A stretch of DNA of 64,000 bases from assembly GCA_038861545.1 (NCBI GenBank), contig JAWCCZ010000003.1, forward strand, positions 1 through 64,000. The letters are read 5' to 3'. Made by a program: the position numbers and the translations under genes. A model generated the notes under the pieces. The model had not been told where the DNA came from, did not search any database, and saw only the letters and a list, made by a program, of their open reading frames with translations. Numbering within the stretch: position 1 is the stretch's first letter; each line of letters opens with the position of its first letter. This DNA is from Thermofilaceae archaeon. GTDB taxonomy: Archaea > Thermoproteota > Thermoprotei > Thermofilales > Thermofilaceae. Shown piece by piece: positions 54,130-61,379 of the stretch.

Positions 54130-54157
54130 TATAAAAAATTTATAAATTCTATATATT
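54130..54157 (+). promoter_or_regulatory. Putative BRE/TATA promoter of the hydrogenase operon
   Basis: AAAAAATTTATAAATT (purine run plus TTTATAAA, itself a 12-bp palindrome) about 45 nt upstream of ATG 54192. Confidence 0.45.
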
Positions 54158-54191
54158 GCACCTTAATAAGAGTCTGCTTAAGGCGTCCCTG

Positions 54192-54707
54192 ATGGAAGGC
54201 GTTAAGGAGAACAAGGTCGGTTGTACCAGCATAGACGAGCTTTTTCAGGGGTTAAGAAGGGAACCTCATAATTTGCTTGAAGCGCTTAGAAGGGTGCAGG
54301 CTCGTCACGGGTACCTGCCGCTTGAGGGGATTAAGAAAGCTGCTGAGTATGTAGGAGTCCCATTAGCTCAAGCTTATAGTGTCGCTACATTTTACCATCA
54401 ATATAGCTTAGAGCCAGTGGGTAAGTACAGAATACTTGTGTGCATGGGTACTGCTTGTCATCTTCGTGGTAATAATTTAAACATAGAATTTCTGCGTACT
54501 ATGCTAGGATTAAAATCGGGTCAGAAAACTACAAGTGACGGTATTTTTTCGGTAGAGGAAGCTCGTTGCTTTGGTTGCTGCGGGCTCGCCCCGGTCGTGG
54601 TAGTTCAACATTCTGGCGGTAAAAACGAGATAGTAGGTAGGGCAAACGCGCGAACGCTAAGGGCAGTTATAACGAAATACAGGAAGCTCGAAGGGGGTGC
54701 GGACTAA
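54192..54707 (+). CDS. HydC/NuoE-like [2Fe-2S] subunit
   Basis: YSVATFY, VCMGTACHLRG, CFGCCGLAPV. Confidence 0.92.
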   Translation: MEGVKENKVGCTSIDELFQGLRREPHNLLEALRRVQARHGYLPLEGIKKAAEYVGVPLAQAYSVATFYHQYSLEPVGKYRILVCMGTACHLRGNNLNIEFLRTMLGLKSGQKTTSDGIFSVEEARCFGCCGLAPVVVVQHSGGKNEIVGRANARTLRAVITKYRKLEGGAD

Positions 54708-56696
54708 ATGTCATGGAGTTTATTAGATAAATGTTGTGAAAAATGCAAACATTCACTAGAAACCCCGTGTCCAGATGTTATAGAGTGTTCGTTAAATGGT
54801 CCATTATGTCACAGTAATGAAGAATGTGTTCAGAAAAGAAAGGTTAGAATTGAGCAGCTGCATTACGGAGAAAAGGGGGCTAAAATCAAAGTACCATGGA
54901 CAAGCTGCACACTTGCTACGGGTGCGGAGGCAATCTACCAGGTAGTTGTTGACTACATCTCAAAAAAAGGATTAGATATAACCGTGTCAATCTCCGGTTG
55001 CTATGGTCTTGATTTTATCGATCCTTGGATTGAGTTTACAGCAAAGGATATGCCCACAGTCGTCTACGCTAACGTTAAAGAAAGCAGCGTGCCGAAGCTC
55101 ATAGAAAAGTACTTTGTAAATCGAGACGTTAGCGGGGCTTTTGCGCTTAAAGAGCGAACCGGCAACACTAAAGGCGAGGATCAGATACCCTTGCTCAGCG
55201 AGTTAGATTTCTGGAGGAAGCAGTACAAATGGGTTTCTCGAAACTGTGGCATAGTCAATCCAGAGTCGCTTGAAGAATACATAGCTTCAGGCGGCTACAA
55301 AGGGCTTAGCAAAGCTCTAAAAATAGGGCCGGATGCCGTTATAGATGAAATTCAGAAAAGTGGATTGAGGGGGCGAGGTGGCGCAGGTTTTCCAACAGGC
55401 TTAAAGTGGAGAATAACAAGACAGCAACGCGCTACACCGAAGTATGCTATAGCTAATGCTGATGAGGGCGATCCAGGCGCGTTTATGAATAGATTGCTAG
55501 CAGAGTCTGATCCCTTCAGAATTGTAGAGGGGTTAACAATAGCTGGCTATGCTGTTGGTGCTAGCAGGGGCTTCATTTTCGTGCGGGCTGAAAAACCTTT
55601 AATGGCTAGGAGATTACAGAGAGCAGTTGAAGAGGCCAGAAAGTATGGCTTACTGGGTATGAATATTCTTAGCTCGGGCTTCAATTTCGATATAGAAGTG
55701 ATACTCAGCGCTGGAGCTTTTGTGTGTGGTGAAGAAACAGCGCTTATCGCCGCTATTGAAGGTAAAAGGGCTTGGCCTCGGCAACGGCCACCCTATCCAG
55801 CTGAAAAAGGATTATGGGGCCAACCTACAGTGATAAATAATGTAGAGACACTAGCTCATGCGGCTACGATTATGGCTGAAGGTGCAGAGAAGTTCTCTGC
55901 TTTAGGTAGCGATAAAACAAAGGGTACGAAAATGTTCTGTGTTACTGGGACGGTCAAAAGAACGGGTGCGTATGAAGTGCCAATAGGAGTTACTATCCGA
56001 ACCCTTGTTGAAGAGTTAGCGGGAGGCGCGCCAGAGGGGGCAAAGATTAAAGCAGTACAGATAGGAGGGCCATCGGGTGGCTGCATACCAGCTTCGCTCT
56101 TAGATTTACAAGTAGATTATGAAACCCTACAAAGCGCTGGTGCTATAATGGGAAGCGGAGGTGTAGTCGCCATTAGCGATGAGAACTGCATGGTTGATGC
56201 GGCCAAGTTTTTCCTAACATTCACATCGGCAGAGTCCTGCGGAAAATGTATACCTTGCCGAGTGGGGTTACGAGTAATGTGGAGCATTCTAGATAAAATA
56301 ACGCATGGCAAAGGTCAAGAAGGTGATTTAGAGATCTTAAAACAGCTCGCCGAGACTGTTCGAACCACAAGTTTGTGTGCTCTAGGAGGGACTGCACCGA
56401 ACCCAGTACTTTCCACGCTCCGCTACTTTATGGATGAGTATGAAGCACATATCAAAGAAAAAATATGTCCTGCAAATGTATGTGCTACACTGATTACTTA
56501 CTCGATAGATGAAAATATATGTATAGGTTGCGGGCAATGTGCAATGAATTGTCCAACAAACGCTGTATCAAAACTTGTAAGCGGTAAGTACTCTATAAAT
56601 CAAAATTCATGCATTAAATGTGGAACTTGCTATATAATTTGCCCAGTAAGGGCTGTGAAAAAAGCTAGCGGTTCAGGAGGTGGTAGAAATGGTTAA
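54708..56696 (+). CDS. HydB/NuoF-like FMN/NAD(P)H-binding diaphorase subunit with a C-terminal 2[4Fe-4S] ferredoxin
   Basis: SGLRGRGGAGFPTG, NADEGDPGAF, FVCGEETAL, ESCGKCIPCR, SLCALG, H....CP...C, two CxxCxxC..CP. Confidence 0.93.
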   Translation: MSWSLLDKCCEKCKHSLETPCPDVIECSLNGPLCHSNEECVQKRKVRIEQLHYGEKGAKIKVPWTSCTLATGAEAIYQVVVDYISKKGLDITVSISGCYGLDFIDPWIEFTAKDMPTVVYANVKESSVPKLIEKYFVNRDVSGAFALKERTGNTKGEDQIPLLSELDFWRKQYKWVSRNCGIVNPESLEEYIASGGYKGLSKALKIGPDAVIDEIQKSGLRGRGGAGFPTGLKWRITRQQRATPKYAIANADEGDPGAFMNRLLAESDPFRIVEGLTIAGYAVGASRGFIFVRAEKPLMARRLQRAVEEARKYGLLGMNILSSGFNFDIEVILSAGAFVCGEETALIAAIEGKRAWPRQRPPYPAEKGLWGQPTVINNVETLAHAATIMAEGAEKFSALGSDKTKGTKMFCVTGTVKRTGAYEVPIGVTIRTLVEELAGGAPEGAKIKAVQIGGPSGGCIPASLLDLQVDYETLQSAGAIMGSGGVVAISDENCMVDAAKFFLTFTSAESCGKCIPCRVGLRVMWSILDKITHGKGQEGDLEILKQLAETVRTTSLCALGGTAPNPVLSTLRYFMDEYEAHIKEKICPANVCATLITYSIDENICIGCGQCAMNCPTNAVSKLVSGKYSINQNSCIKCGTCYIICPVRAVKKASGSGGGRNG

Positions 56697-57342
56697 AGTA
56701 AAAATTAATGGAACAATTATCGAAGTTGAACCTGGGACCTCAGTACTAGCTGCGGCTGAGAAAGCGGGTTTAAGGATTCCCCACCTTTGCGCAGTCAAAG
56801 ATATTTATGAAGGTGCTAGCTGTAGGCTATGCTTAGTTAAAACCCCGACGGGACGTCTCTTTCCAGCCTGTGCTTACTATGTATACAGGGATGAGGAATT
56901 CATTAGCGATTCACCAGATTTGAAGATGACAAGAAAAGCAAATTTTGAATTTATTCTTAAGTTCCATAGAATGGAGTGCTGGCTTTGCCCACGCAAAGGT
57001 AACTGCATGCTAACCGAGTTATCAAAGGAATTGGCAGTCGAAGGAATCCCTGTATGTGCAGAGTGTCCTCTTTCTCCAGAAGAATGCCTGCTAACTAAGG
57101 GCGTGTCCTGTCTTGGACCGATTACAATATCCGGATGCAATGCAGAGTGTACCGAGAGTGGAGGACCATGTTGGGGCTGCCGTGGCCCAGTATCTAGAGC
57201 AGATGTGATTGAAAACGCAGTTTTACGCTATAGGGAGCTAGGGATAGATACAGACACAATTTTGAGAAAAGCTGATATTTTCTGGAATTCGCTCCCCGAA
57301 TTCGAAGTGGTGAAAAAGGTGTTTAACACGGTGAGAGTGTAA
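56680..57342 (+). CDS. Chimeric Fe-S subunit: HydA/NuoG N-terminal [2Fe-2S] and His-ligated [4Fe-4S] plus the C-terminal half of a group 3 [NiFe] small subunit
   Basis: IPHLC...SCRLCLV...PAC; H...C..C.....C; then VCAEC.....CLL..G..CLGPIT..GC.A.C...G.PC.GCRGP. The ATG may be 56689. Confidence 0.82.
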   Translation: MVEMVKVKINGTIIEVEPGTSVLAAAEKAGLRIPHLCAVKDIYEGASCRLCLVKTPTGRLFPACAYYVYRDEEFISDSPDLKMTRKANFEFILKFHRMECWLCPRKGNCMLTELSKELAVEGIPVCAECPLSPEECLLTKGVSCLGPITISGCNAECTESGGPCWGCRGPVSRADVIENAVLRYRELGIDTDTILRKADIFWNSLPEFEVVKKVFNTVRV

Positions 57343-58625
57343 TGAATGGCCAGAATAGCAGCTTAGTTATAGAAGAAATCCCAGCAGTTGCTGGACATGT
57401 TGATGTATACGTTGAGGGTAAAGAAACAGTTGTCCGAGTTAAGTTTAGTGTTACTCAGGATCCCAGGTTCTTCGAACGTTTTCTTAAAGGACGACCAAGC
57501 GTGGAAGTACCGTACGTAATGTCACGTATATGTGGTGTTTGCAGCATTGTACACTTAACTTGTTCAATAGATGCTATAGAAAAAGCGCTCGGCGTTGAAC
57601 CGAGTGAAGAAATCCTCAAACTTAGGAAGCTAGCTAAGGGCCTAGAGGTAATCCAGAACAACTTAGTACATGTTTTAATGTCTTTGCCGGATTTCACAGG
57701 TTGCAACGATGTTGTAAGTTTTTCCAAAGGCTACCAAAACATTTTCAATAAGTTGATGAACACTAATAGGCTAGCACTAGAAGCTTACAAAAGGATCTGT
57801 GGGAGATTCGTTCACACTCCAACTCTAGGTGTTGCAGCGCACAGTAAGCCGGTAAGCAAGTACGAGCTAGAGTCAGCGGGTAAACTGCTTCATACAGTAG
57901 CTAAAGAGCTTGAAGAGATGGTCAGTGATTTGGCAGAAATATGGAGGCCTCTTGCGGAAGGATTTAGCGATCCGGCGCCTACTTACTGTGTTTTAAATAG
58001 CGATGAAGAGTACCCCCTATTTAGCCCGAGCTTATTGTTTTCTGACGGAGTAACAGTCCCCGTCGAGAAATATAGTACTGTTATAGAGGAGTTAAGATCC
58101 CCCTACTCCAACGCTCATTATACCCTTTATAGAAACGGGGCTTTTTATAGTGGATCCAGGGCAAGGATTCAAGCATATTCAAAAATTATCGGCAGCGAGA
58201 TCTCGGCGATAACGAAAATGTTGAGTATAGATCCCAGCAATCCATTCGATAATGTAAAAGCGCAATATATAGAAGTAGTTTATTTATCAAGTTTCTTAGG
58301 TGATTTGGCTTTTGATCTAGCCGAGGAATTCCGAGGAGGCATAAGCCCCTCTCACGTCGCATACTCTAGTGGAAGCGGTGAGGGAGTAGCAGCTGCGACT
58401 GCTCCGAGAGGTGTCCTTATACACCATTATATCGTAAAGGGAGGTAAGCTAGAAAGCGCAAATATCATAACTCCTACAGTTATTAATGCAAGACATATGG
58501 AGGTAGCCGGTGAAGCTTTAGTTCGAAGGCTTGTGGAATGTGGTGAAAGTGAAAAAAGCATAAAAAGTATGGTAGCCGCGCTTGTAAGAGCTTACGATCC
58601 ATGTCTACCATGTGCTGTCCATTAG
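57342..58625 (+). CDS. [NiFe]-hydrogenase large subunit (group 3b-like)
   Basis: L1 RFFE..L.GR....SRICGVC; APRG.L.H.Y; L2 RAYDPCLPCAVH*. Confidence 0.93.
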   Translation: MNGQNSSLVIEEIPAVAGHVDVYVEGKETVVRVKFSVTQDPRFFERFLKGRPSVEVPYVMSRICGVCSIVHLTCSIDAIEKALGVEPSEEILKLRKLAKGLEVIQNNLVHVLMSLPDFTGCNDVVSFSKGYQNIFNKLMNTNRLALEAYKRICGRFVHTPTLGVAAHSKPVSKYELESAGKLLHTVAKELEEMVSDLAEIWRPLAEGFSDPAPTYCVLNSDEEYPLFSPSLLFSDGVTVPVEKYSTVIEELRSPYSNAHYTLYRNGAFYSGSRARIQAYSKIIGSEISAITKMLSIDPSNPFDNVKAQYIEVVYLSSFLGDLAFDLAEEFRGGISPSHVAYSSGSGEGVAAATAPRGVLIHHYIVKGGKLESANIITPTVINARHMEVAGEALVRRLVECGESEKSIKSMVAALVRAYDPCLPCAVH

Positions 58626-59918
58626 GTGATGAGTATGAAGGTAGCATTTTTCTCATTCGGAGCATGTGAAGGTTGCAGGTATAGGATGGTGAACGAGCTT
58701 TCTAGGATACTCAGTATAGATGGTATTGAAATAGTAAGGGAGCCCTTACTCGGGTTAGCTTCTGAAGATGAGTACGATATAGCTGTGGTGGAAGGCGCGT
58801 TAACCTCCCACGATATGGAAAAATGCAAGGAAATCAGGAGTAAGGCAAAGTATGTAATAGCTTTAGGAAGCTGTGCATACCTTGGCGGAATTACTACATT
58901 AGGGTATAAGTATGGTTTTCAAGCTGAAGAATACATTAAGAGGGGTTACAAAGAATCCATTCCACTTCAGCGAGTAATAGGCGTTGACAACTACGTTAGA
59001 GGTTGTCCCGCCAGCATTGAAGAACTAGCTAATGTTCTGAGGGAGATAATTACTTCCGGTGCATTGCCTAGATATGAGAGAAGGTTCGAGTTTGAAAAAA
59101 TCTCAAGCATCGTGTTAAAAGATGAGTTCCTTAAATTAGATACAGGTAAGTGTATCGTCTGCGGAAGATGTGTTGAGATTTGTTCCCAGATAAATGTGCA
59201 CGCACTAACGCAAGCCTTTCGGGGATTCCGAGTGATCGTGAGCACTCCTGGTCAACTGAGTTTCCTCGAAGCCGGTTGTATACATTGTGGGCTTTGTGCA
59301 GCTATTTGTCCAGTAGGAGCTGTGACTTATAGAAGTGACATAGAGGCATCATTGAAAGCCATCCGCTCTGGTGCTAGTGTAGTAGCCGAGATCACGGCTC
59401 TAGATGCGGCAGCTAAAGCTCTTGGTGTAGAGACTGGGCAGACGGTATCTTTGCTTAAGCAACTTGGAGCGTCTAACGTTAAAGTAGTGGATCCAATAAA
59501 TTTAGTTACGAATAAAGTTGGCATAGTGCCATTCAGTGTAGCTGAGGAAAGATGGATAAAAGTTATCTATCCTCAGGCTAGCGAATACCTTCTTCAACGA
59601 CCAATACTAAATGCTCAAGGCGTTCTGCTAATCACTGCTTGTGCTTCCAGGAAGGAAGAGCATACACCAACTTTAACGGCGCACGAGTTAACCATCTTGG
59701 CAAAAGGATGCGGCTTAGTCTTAGAGGATCTGCCGGCAGTTAATTTTGATTTTCAACCCGCTTCTAGATCAAACCTAAGAGTAGTTAAAGGTCCAAGCGA
59801 ATCTACCGAAGCTATACAAGAATTCTTAGAATCACCTACCCATACGTTAGTAGTGCAACTTTGCCCTATGGGTTGCGAAAAAGGATCTGGCATTCCATTT
59901 AAATTGCTTAACAGATAG
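58626..59918 (+). CDS. Chimeric subunit: [NiFe] small-subunit N-terminal domain + HydA-type 2[4Fe-4S] + degenerate [FeFe] H-cluster-like domain
   Basis: CEGC, VEG, GSCA..GG, RGCP; KCIVCGRCV..C, CIHCGLC...CPVGA; TACASRKEE..TLTAHEL and QLCPMGCEKGSG. Confidence 0.8.
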   Translation: MMSMKVAFFSFGACEGCRYRMVNELSRILSIDGIEIVREPLLGLASEDEYDIAVVEGALTSHDMEKCKEIRSKAKYVIALGSCAYLGGITTLGYKYGFQAEEYIKRGYKESIPLQRVIGVDNYVRGCPASIEELANVLREIITSGALPRYERRFEFEKISSIVLKDEFLKLDTGKCIVCGRCVEICSQINVHALTQAFRGFRVIVSTPGQLSFLEAGCIHCGLCAAICPVGAVTYRSDIEASLKAIRSGASVVAEITALDAAAKALGVETGQTVSLLKQLGASNVKVVDPINLVTNKVGIVPFSVAEERWIKVIYPQASEYLLQRPILNAQGVLLITACASRKEEHTPTLTAHELTILAKGCGLVLEDLPAVNFDFQPASRSNLRVVKGPSESTEAIQEFLESPTHTLVVQLCPMGCEKGSGIPFKLLNR

Positions 59919-59993: not shown

Positions 59994-61379
59994 GTGGTGG
60001 AGGGCTTCAAACAGCTACGAAGCGCGCCGCGCGGCTTCAAAGTCAGTATAATAGAAGGTGCATTGACTGTTTTCGGGTCCTCGTTAATCGGACCCATGGT
60101 AACGCCGCTTCTGATACGCCTGGGAGCAGATGCCGGCGTCATTGGTTTATACACCGCATTGGTCTCTACAACTACACCTCTGATGCAAATTTTAGCTGCT
60201 TTAATCTTAGATAGGTTTCGTGAACACCGGCTTCTTATAATGACTTCCTTCGCCGGAGTTAGCAGAATCTTATGGTTTGGTGTCCTATTAACAATTTTAG
60301 GTGTTTGGGGAGATCTCTGGACAGCCATAGCTTTACTCGGTCTTTCTAATGCCATAGGGGTTTTATCTAGCTTAGCATGGACGGATATAATGGCCGACTT
60401 AGTCGAGGCTAGGGAGAGAGGGCGTTTATTCGCAATTAGGAATACGTTGCTTGGCCTCATTAACTTAATGAGTCTCATCTTTGCAAAAGCTATATATGAT
60501 CGGTTAATGTATCCACAAGGATATGTGATAGCCATTACACTTGGGGCCTCTTTCATGTTAGCTGCAACGCCTTTACTTTACCTCTATGGGGATCAAGTTA
60601 AGCCTAAAGGTATTGGCTTAGGATTAAAAGGCGTTGCAGCGGCCTTTAAAGACAGGCAAGTACTCAAGGATTCTTTCTCCCTATCGTTCTGGAACTTTAC
60701 GGTTAGCATGGTAGGCGGAGTATGGAATTACCATATGTACGTGGCCTACGGAGCTGACGAAATCTGGTTTACTACTTTGAACTTAGTAGCCGGGCTAATA
60801 GGTATAGTAGCAAATCCTCCATGGGGATCTTTTTATGATAGGTTTGGTCCGAGAACTACTTTCATCCTATCTGGTTTGGGAATAGTTGCGGTACCCATTC
60901 TATTTCCCTTTTTACCAAGCCTAGCCAGCCAAGCAGCGTTACAAATGTACTCTACATTTGTATGGAGTGGATTTAACTTGGCTGCGTTCAATTATGCTCT
61001 GTCCTATGGATCTGAAGCTCGACATTTATACATAGCAGTTTATAACACAATTCCTTCATTGTTTTCTGCCCTCGGTACACTGACAGGAGTCCAAATCTAT
61101 GATAGGGCAACAGTTTGGGTATTTTTTATCTCTGGAGTTGGAAGAATATTTGCATTAACTGTTCTGTATCAGACCTCCTCATCAAGAGGGTTAGCATATG
61201 AGGAACTAAAGGTTCTCAGCAATCTTTATCCTATTTTTTTAACTACACGCGCATTAGCGGTTTATGCTTATGCGGAATTCATTCTGGCATTAAAATTACT
61301 CTATGCTGCTTTGCTAACAGTACTAGTACTCTCGGCACTAGCCGGACTATTTATAATACTCAAGGTAATAGCCCTATAG
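59994..61379 (+). CDS. MFS transporter
   Basis: 12+ hydrophobic segments, DLVEARERGR.F, WG.FYDRFG.R. Confidence 0.88.
   Translation: MVEGFKQLRSAPRGFKVSIIEGALTVFGSSLIGPMVTPLLIRLGADAGVIGLYTALVSTTTPLMQILAALILDRFREHRLLIMTSFAGVSRILWFGVLLTILGVWGDLWTAIALLGLSNAIGVLSSLAWTDIMADLVEARERGRLFAIRNTLLGLINLMSLIFAKAIYDRLMYPQGYVIAITLGASFMLAATPLLYLYGDQVKPKGIGLGLKGVAAAFKDRQVLKDSFSLSFWNFTVSMVGGVWNYHMYVAYGADEIWFTTLNLVAGLIGIVANPPWGSFYDRFGPRTTFILSGLGIVAVPILFPFLPSLASQAALQMYSTFVWSGFNLAAFNYALSYGSEARHLYIAVYNTIPSLFSALGTLTGVQIYDRATVWVFFISGVGRIFALTVLYQTSSSRGLAYEELKVLSNLYPIFLTTRALAVYAYAEFILALKLLYAALLTVLVLSALAGLFIILKVIAL

Follow-up and report, generated by a model that had tools for sequence, protein, structure and literature searches.

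What becomes of an [FeFe]-hydrogenase catalytic domain (H-domain) when it is cut down to about 200 residues and loses both cysteines of its first signature motif, L1? The question is raised by 64,000 nucleotides of DNA from a Thermofilaceae archaeon (assembly GCA_038861545.1, contig JAWCCZ010000003.1, positions 1 to 64,000 of the forward strand; this whole stretch is called the window below), in which the last gene of a five-gene hydrogenase operon fuses half of a [NiFe] small subunit to a HydA-type ferredoxin domain and a short C-terminal tail. We favor, with a probability of roughly 0.55, the reading that the tail holds a single [4Fe-4S] cubane on three cysteines and Ser301, that this cubane would end a HydA-type electron wire and lack a working [2Fe] subsite, and that H2 chemistry would be left to the [NiFe] site.

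The C-terminal domain is a cut-down H-domain

The fusion gene and its parts are listed here, with residue numbers of the protein counted from the ATG at 58635, which is also the start in four close homologues.

58626..59918, + strand: fusion gene, an open reading frame of 430 amino acids with its probable start at ATG 58635
58635..59114, + strand: residues 1–160, [NiFe] small-subunit domain, N-terminal half with the proximal cluster (PF01058 at residues 14–140 of the open reading frame, E = 5.9e-22)
59115..59315, + strand: residues 161–227, HydA-type 2x[4Fe-4S] ferredoxin domain (aligns with 8a6t_A residues 140–247, E = 3.5e-21)
59316..59918, + strand: residues 228–427 and stop codon, cut-down H-domain

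Residues 228–427 are genuinely homologous to the H-domain of [FeFe] hydrogenases and retain its core of about 200 residues. Searches of Pfam and NCBIfam with the tail alone give no match at E ≤ 1, and the PF02906 model gives none for this protein. The NCBIfam [FeFe]-hydrogenase models span the ferredoxin domain and then 40–60 residues of the tail; phmmer searches of the PDB behave likewise, the alignment of the ferredoxin domain with 8a6t_A continuing into the beginning of the H-domain. The homology of the tail is visible solely because family profiles were used or the ferredoxin part was included.

With such profiles the relationship is clear. A profile of three sequences (the tail and two stand-alone relatives) finds only [FeFe] hydrogenases in the PDB, in collinear segments and with a best E-value of 2.2e-7. 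When 31 tails cut from related archaeal loci are used instead, the best match is T. kivui HydA1 (8a6t_A, E = 2.7e-20), and the 43 distinct sequences found at E ≤ 1e-4 are all [FeFe] hydrogenases. Some relatives also carry a precomputed PF02906 match.

The predicted fold agrees. An AlphaFold2 model of the tail, computed from the 31 family tails and from no true [FeFe] sequence, has a mean predicted local distance difference test score (pLDDT) of 90.5 and a predicted template-modeling score (pTM) of 0.86. All Foldseek matches among those listed, to rank 50, are [FeFe] hydrogenases (best E = 4e-8, query TM-score about 0.7). VIA-align places 198 of the 200 residues onto residues 66–393 of DdH and 190–525 of CpI (Z = 15.7, root-mean-square deviation 2.7 Å); across 48,161 PDB representatives, four chains reach Z ≥ 8, all of them [FeFe] hydrogenases, and the next best stands at Z = 5.0. 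A look-up in the ESM Atlas repeats the [FeFe] likeness at the level of a lead. A preliminary description of the locus, made from its letters alone, had recognized a shrunken H-domain here and had named structural comparison in advance as the check, an absence of similarity being what would speak against it. Sequence profile and fold both bear this description out, and Foldseek and VIA-align find the similarity. The four motif strings that it had read (PFSVAE, TACASRKEE, TLTAHEL and CPMGCEKGSG) are present where it placed them. Its starting point of 59340 lies within the homologous domain, but the domain begins about 24 nucleotides upstream, near 59316.

Deleted segments

The tail following the second ferredoxin motif is 200 amino acids long, compared with 364–388 for the equivalent span in 23 bacterial HydA proteins. 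Aligning the 31 tails with these 23 bacterial H-domains shows that the family lacks 183 alignment columns, distributed over five blocks. The first deletion removes the helix that follows LGFDxVFDTNF and bears the Glu/Glu/Arg of the proton path, and the second the SPQQ-containing segment between L1 and L2. The third is a loop downstream of L2. The fourth takes out about 60 residues past the LTTRE helix, including the GAGVIFG...GGVMEAALR region that forms the lid over the [2Fe] site, and the fifth the C-terminal 55 residues or so.

Cluster and pocket residues

Residue conservation was counted over 76 full-length relatives, which share about 30–35% identity. The three motif remnants lie at the following positions.

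59529..59546, + strand: L1 relic PFSVAE in place of TSCCPxW; Phe300 in the relay-Cys column, Ser301 in the ligand-Cys column
59634..59690, + strand: L2 relic TACASRKEE and TLTAHEL; Cys336 kept, Thr334 for Met353, Arg339 for Lys358
59862..59891, + strand: L3 CPMGCEKGSG; Cys410 and Cys414 kept, Cys414 being the equivalent of the bridging Cys503

Cys336 of L2 and both Cys410 and Cys414 of L3 are invariant (76/76 each). The retention of a [4Fe-4S] site is the most economical reading, because these three cluster cysteines, including the bridging one, are strictly kept. Both cysteines of L1 are gone from the window protein. The register of L1 is set by a YP motif 12 residues downstream in both families, and in this register the column of the fourth cubane ligand holds Ser301 in every relative (76/76), with Glu304, three residues on, equally invariant. 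The preliminary description was right that both L1 cysteines are lost and that three cluster cysteines, the bridging equivalent among them, are kept in all 76; its view that the fourth ligand had been lost holds for the cysteine itself, but an invariant serine in its place is no simple loss. The proton-relay column, by comparison, is variable (A, F, M, Y, R, V or K), with a cysteine in one relative and none in the other 75.

The pocket that would surround a [2Fe] subsite is largely rebuilt. The column of the cyanide-binding Lys358 holds Arg in 56 relatives, Trp in 15 and Lys in 5, and the window protein lacks both this lysine and the cyanide-binding Gln. Thr or Ser occupies the Met353 column; Tyr, Gln, Glu or Lys occupies that of Met497 (Gln in the window protein); and the Ala230 column is acidic throughout (Glu in 71, Asp in 5).

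Judged by these motifs, the window protein is a member of the most reduced subclade in the published class discussed below. This subclade comprises 21 sequences of 426–454 amino acids, in which GGGQP has become GSG(I/A/S)P (GSGIP in the window protein), LTTRE has become LTAHE and the C-terminal helix of the longer members is lost; 53 sequences are of the GGG type. Compared with the Thermofilaceae locus L003 (84% identical), the ratio of non-synonymous to synonymous substitution rates (dN/dS) is 0.17 for the H-domain and 0.08 and 0.02 for the flanking domains, with dS near saturation. The cut-down H-domain is under purifying selection and not in decay.

Two variations on these motifs were seen elsewhere. 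TSCSPGW replaces TSCCPxW in 6 of 38 bacterial HydA genes (loci L036, L037, L045, L047, L063 and L066) and in A. woodii HydA1 (7q4v_A), placing a serine in the CpI Cys300 column of enzymes that are otherwise complete; our literature search found no paper discussing this variant. Some relatives, mostly from Desulfurococcales metagenome-assembled genomes, carry an extra C-terminal CxxC pair (e.g. EVCVDCR) past L3, which is absent from the window protein (L011:944-1624, L012:1616-2296, L017:2061-2741, L018:5326-6009, L022:7709-8401 and L025:7703-8383).

Organization of the operon

The fusion gene closes a tightly packed operon on the + strand with the order hydC-hydB-hydD-hyhL-hyhS::hydA. The four genes that precede it are as follows.

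54156..54707, + strand: hydC, first gene of the operon, NuoE-type thioredoxin-like [2Fe-2S] subunit (PF01257, E = 2.8e-39; syntenic in related loci)
54708..56696, + strand: hydB, NuoF-type subunit for flavin mononucleotide (FMN) and NAD(H); CCxxC prefix at the N-terminus, 2x[4Fe-4S] domain at the C-terminus
56680..57342, + strand: hydD, 220 amino acids, the N-terminal part of a HydA/NuoG protein fused to a small-subunit domain of the group 3 [NiFe] type (C-terminal half)
57342..58625, + strand: hyhL, group 3 [NiFe] large subunit (PF00374, E = 5.8e-24; ShyA, E = 3e-50, full length)

HydB matches TIGR01959 (E = 2.7e-141), NF040902 in its prefix, and the Complex1_51K, NADH_4Fe-4S and Fer4 domains. 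In HydD, residues 3–121 correspond to Fer2_4 and NADH-G_4Fe-4S_3, that is, a [2Fe-2S] and a His-ligated [4Fe-4S] cluster, and residues 121–201 match positions 156–237 of the 240 in NCBIfam ShyD (E = 3.9e-18). HyhL has both CxxC pairs and ends in DPCLPCAVH. On the fusion protein, the proximal-cluster ligands Cys11, Cys14, Cys80 and Cys124 are invariant or conserved in at least 90% of 79 family rows.

A break near residue 150 divides the [NiFe] small subunit; its proximal half heads the fusion protein (58635-59114) and its medial/distal half ends HydD (56680-57342). The two halves of the HydA-type protein are distributed the opposite way. Following the operon, at 59994-61379, lies a gene for a 461-residue transporter of the major facilitator superfamily (PF07690, E = 2.3e-20), whose position is kept in five Thermofilaceae/Thermofilales loci (L003, L005, L006, L007 and L009) and not in other lineages.

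Distribution and maturation genes

When the tail was searched against 1.84 billion representative proteins, only seven clusters came back. A profile search of a 5.8-billion set extended this to about 85 clusters, formed at 90% identity, that have all three parts of the architecture and lengths of 413–480 amino acids; it found no longer fused form within the length range searched. The hosts are Thermofilaceae, Desulfurococcales, Wolframiiraptor, Bathyarchaeia and Asgard lineages. Species-representative genomes contain 33 archaeal loci with the family, no Thermoplasmata locus being among those that came up; the Thermoproteota loci share the order hydC-hydB-hydD-hyhL-fusion, and five-gene synteny extends over more than 20 archaeal loci. 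The domain is present in 14 of 120 genomes of the class and in 9 of 22 other genomes of the window's family, where its distribution is patchy: the cut-down H-domain gives no match in any of eight genomes of one genus (G059-G066; mostly closed, five of them consisting of one or two contigs), and 9 of the remaining 14 are positive.

In Bathyarchaeia the operon reads hydC-hydB-hydD-fusion, with no large-subunit gene. We considered whether the [NiFe] site is wholly missing there and rejected this, as in every one of these genomes a single [NiFe] large-subunit gene, about 30% identical, stands alone on a different contig. The loci concerned are L029:7001-8320, L031:5812-7197, L033:7001-8383, L090:1453-2739 and L092:1471-2757. 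In L090 and L092 the lone gene has no adjoining small-subunit gene and is flanked by a PAPS-reductase/ferredoxin gene and a MoaA-like gene. L029 has a neighboring divergent cluster of HdrA-MvhD, small-subunit and large-subunit genes.

The window's genome, which is 92% complete, has no match to the maturases HydG and HydE, only generic GTPases below the cut-off for HydF, and no other PF02906 match. HydG is likewise absent from five other genomes that bear the family. The window's genome does have HypD, a gene for [NiFe] maturation, and three [NiFe] large-subunit genes.

Relation to the published hybrid hydrogenases

Greening et al. (Cell 2024; PMC11216029) described archaeal hybrid complexes that unite an [FeFe] hydrogenase of group F with a [NiFe] hydrogenase of group 3f, in which an N-terminal HyhS domain is fused to a C-terminal HydA domain and is encoded contiguously with hyhL, hydB, hydC and a conduit subunit, hydD. 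They call the group F domain a true catalytic domain, report its H-cluster cysteine ligands as observed and propose two H2 sites in the complex; their multimer model shows the [NiFe] and HydA-type parts as separate arms. Two Thermoplasmata fusion proteins were assayed in that study. Th1 evolved H2 in E. coli lysate after addition of [2Fe]adt, at 5% of the level of CrHydA1; Th2 was barely active, and neither protein could be purified (PMC11216029).

In these terms the window gene encodes the HyhS::HydA subunit of a group F [FeFe]/3f [NiFe] hybrid, an identity that the preliminary description had missed, and is a further example of the described class. We infer that the family as a whole is group F, because all fused forms found in the databases searched are of this type and the host classes overlap, the assignment following the published description (architecture, gene order and hosts).

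A proposed electron-transfer role and its alternatives

In the scheme that we favor for this Thermofilaceae lineage, the [NiFe] site of HyhL would split H2 or produce it. Electrons would run from there to the flavin of HydB, by way of the proximal cluster of the fusion subunit and of the medial and distal clusters that HydD carries. A HydA-type wire would have as its last cluster the cubane on Cys336, Cys410 and Cys414, with Ser301, in the column of the lost ligand cysteine, as the fourth ligand read from the alignment only; from this cubane it would pass through the two ferredoxin clusters and the HydD clusters to the FMN of HydB. The deletions strip the lid from the former [2Fe] cavity, which probably leaves the cubane more exposed than its counterpart in true enzymes. 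Such exposure would fit a port to a partner protein or a contact between subunits, so that the end cluster might serve as an outward port to a partner such as ferredoxin or as a contact to the [NiFe] module. The loss of the relay cysteine, of the proton path and of most pocket residues is consistent with this scheme, as are the intact [NiFe] large subunit and the presence of HypD.

Several points weigh against it. Th1 is reported to be active after addition of [2Fe]adt (PMC11216029), and if Th1 shares the motifs described here, the domain can host a [2Fe] subsite. Conservation of the bridging cysteine and of the CPxGC loop is perfect, and a cubane used for electron transfer alone would strictly need neither. 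Serine ligation and the position of the cluster are themselves deduced from sequence. Finally, the missing HydEFG genes are weak evidence, because archaeal hosts of [FeFe] hydrogenases almost always lack them, and one archaeal enzyme from a maturase-less host is active on heterologous expression (PMC11216029).

The first two of these points also speak for the strongest alternative, in which the domain would function as an [FeFe] site of extremely small size. A [2Fe] subsite would sit on Cys414 beside a Cys3-Ser cubane, would be matured by an unknown archaeal route and would give the complex two H2 sites. The activity of Th1 after [2Fe]adt is joined here by the conservation of the bridging cysteine, the CPxGC loop and LT(T/A)(R/H)E, by a basic residue kept in the Lys358 column and by a core H-domain fold that the model predicts to be intact. 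The serine in the ligand column is not by itself proof of a lost cluster, because A. woodii HydA1 (7q4v_A) and the 6 of 38 bacterial HydA that read TSCSPGW have a serine in the Cys300 column as well. Those enzymes, however, keep the neighboring cysteine, and here there is no relay cysteine. The proton-path helix and SPQQ are deleted, both pocket methionines are replaced, the Ala230 column holds Glu or Asp, and in the subclade of the window protein the erosion of GGGQP to GSGIP and the loss of the C-terminal helix go further still; no maturases were found. The Th1 activity, moreover, was measured in lysate only. We consider a working site unlikely, though it is the most probable of the alternatives. 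The preliminary description had gone further and held that the domain cannot be active, a verdict that the H2 evolved by the Th1 group F fusion after [2Fe]adt (PMC11216029), an outcome that it had itself said would refute it, keeps from being established.

The cubane could also lie on the path itself, passing electrons between the [NiFe] proximal cluster and the HydA wire, and would then not be an end station. The precedent is NiFe-HydABCSL of Acetomicrobium mobile, where a plain cluster, A5, at the position of the H-cluster relays electrons from the small subunit to the HydA wire along the path NiFe, S1, A5, A4 (PMC8880783), and the covalent joining of the proximal-cluster half to the ferredoxin and H-like domains would suit such a path. 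But HydD carries a full medial/distal cluster module that gives the [NiFe] site its normal wire, and the published multimer model keeps the two arms separate (PMC11216029). The sequence match of 7t2r_A, the A. mobile HydA, to the window protein is limited to the ferredoxin part, and this chain is absent from the fold matches listed for Foldseek, VIA-align and the PDB representatives. An on-path role is improbable on this balance.

Even more doubtful is a metal-free scaffold that holds the fusion subunit in the complex. The heavy trimming of the domain, the fact that only three cysteines remain and a dN/dS above the 0.02–0.08 of the neighboring domains are what such a scaffold might show, yet 76 sequences from several archaeal phyla, which vary at most other positions, all keep the three cysteines, the serine and the glutamate of the cluster site.

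Sensory HydS proteins have a full-size H-domain that keeps all four cysteines and lacks the relay cysteine and both pocket methionines. The window protein shares these last two losses, but it has no PAS or other signaling domain and its operon no regulator gene, so that a redox or H2 sensor regulating the complex in the manner of group C/D HydS is highly improbable, and the sensor role raised in the preliminary description finds no support.

Implications

As published, the hybrid [FeFe]/[NiFe] hydrogenases contain two distinct sites of H2 conversion (PMC11216029). In contrast, all 76 relatives examined here, from Thermoproteota, Bathyarchaeia and Asgard lineages, have a serine for the fourth cluster cysteine and lack the known proton path and most pocket residues. 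If the [FeFe] half is a relic that serves as an electron-transfer module, both the proposed mechanism and the account of an ancient dual-catalyst enzyme become simpler; if it is a far smaller and chemically different scaffold for an H-cluster, it would be of interest for the design of minimal hydrogen catalysts.

Each direction has a far-reaching form. There is a small chance that a 200-residue H-domain assembles a working H-cluster in vivo with a serine ligand, no cysteine relay and no HydEFG. It would then be the smallest and most divergent [FeFe] catalytic scaffold known, about 85 residues below the ultraminimal group E. Conversely, the published 'catalytic' domain may, throughout group F, be a relic with a Cys3-Ser cubane, and the hybrid an enzyme with a single H2 site.

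Comparison with known systems

A. woodii HydA1 (7Q4V) shares the serine in the CpI Cys300 column and is among the closest PDB matches to the tail profile (E = 1.1e-15). It differs in that its H-domain is of full size and retains the adjacent cysteine and every pocket residue, and in being active as a bifurcating [FeFe] hydrogenase.

Nar1/NARFL is a eukaryotic factor of cytosolic iron–sulfur protein assembly and an H-domain homologue with [4Fe-4S] clusters and no [2Fe] subsite. The preliminary description had likened the tail to a Nar1-style relic; as an analogy this holds, but nothing goes beyond it. Nar1 is full-size and eukaryotic, has four cubane cysteines and a second, N-terminal cluster, and stands outside hydrogenases, whereas the domain described here has three cysteines and 200 residues and belongs to an archaeal hydrogenase operon.

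The group E ultraminimal [FeFe] hydrogenases of DPANN archaea (PMC11216029) likewise have loop-deleted H-domains in hosts without maturases. They average 286 residues, keep all H-cluster cysteines and have a spectroscopically proven H-cluster, unlike the present domain of about 200 residues with no cysteine in L1.

NiFe-HydABCSL of A. mobile (7T2R) resembles the window's complex in combining a HydABC-type bifurcating module with a [NiFe] large/small pair and in having a plain Fe-S cluster at the position of the H-cluster, which is what we propose here. Its HydA is a single chain of 692 amino acids and its small subunit is separate, with one cluster; in the window both proteins are split and cross-fused. 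We do not claim the same fold for the C-terminal domain of A. mobile HydA, because 7t2r_A is not among the fold matches listed.

The closest counterparts are the group F/3f hybrids themselves. They have the same [NiFe] small-subunit domain N-terminal to a HydA-type domain, an identical five-gene cluster, archaeal hosts that include Thermoproteia and Bathyarchaeia, and no HydEFG. The difference lies at the site itself: the published ligands are described as conserved, whereas the family described here has three of the four ligand cysteines, no cysteine anywhere in the L1 segment of 75 of the 76 sequences and a serine in the remaining ligand column of all 76.

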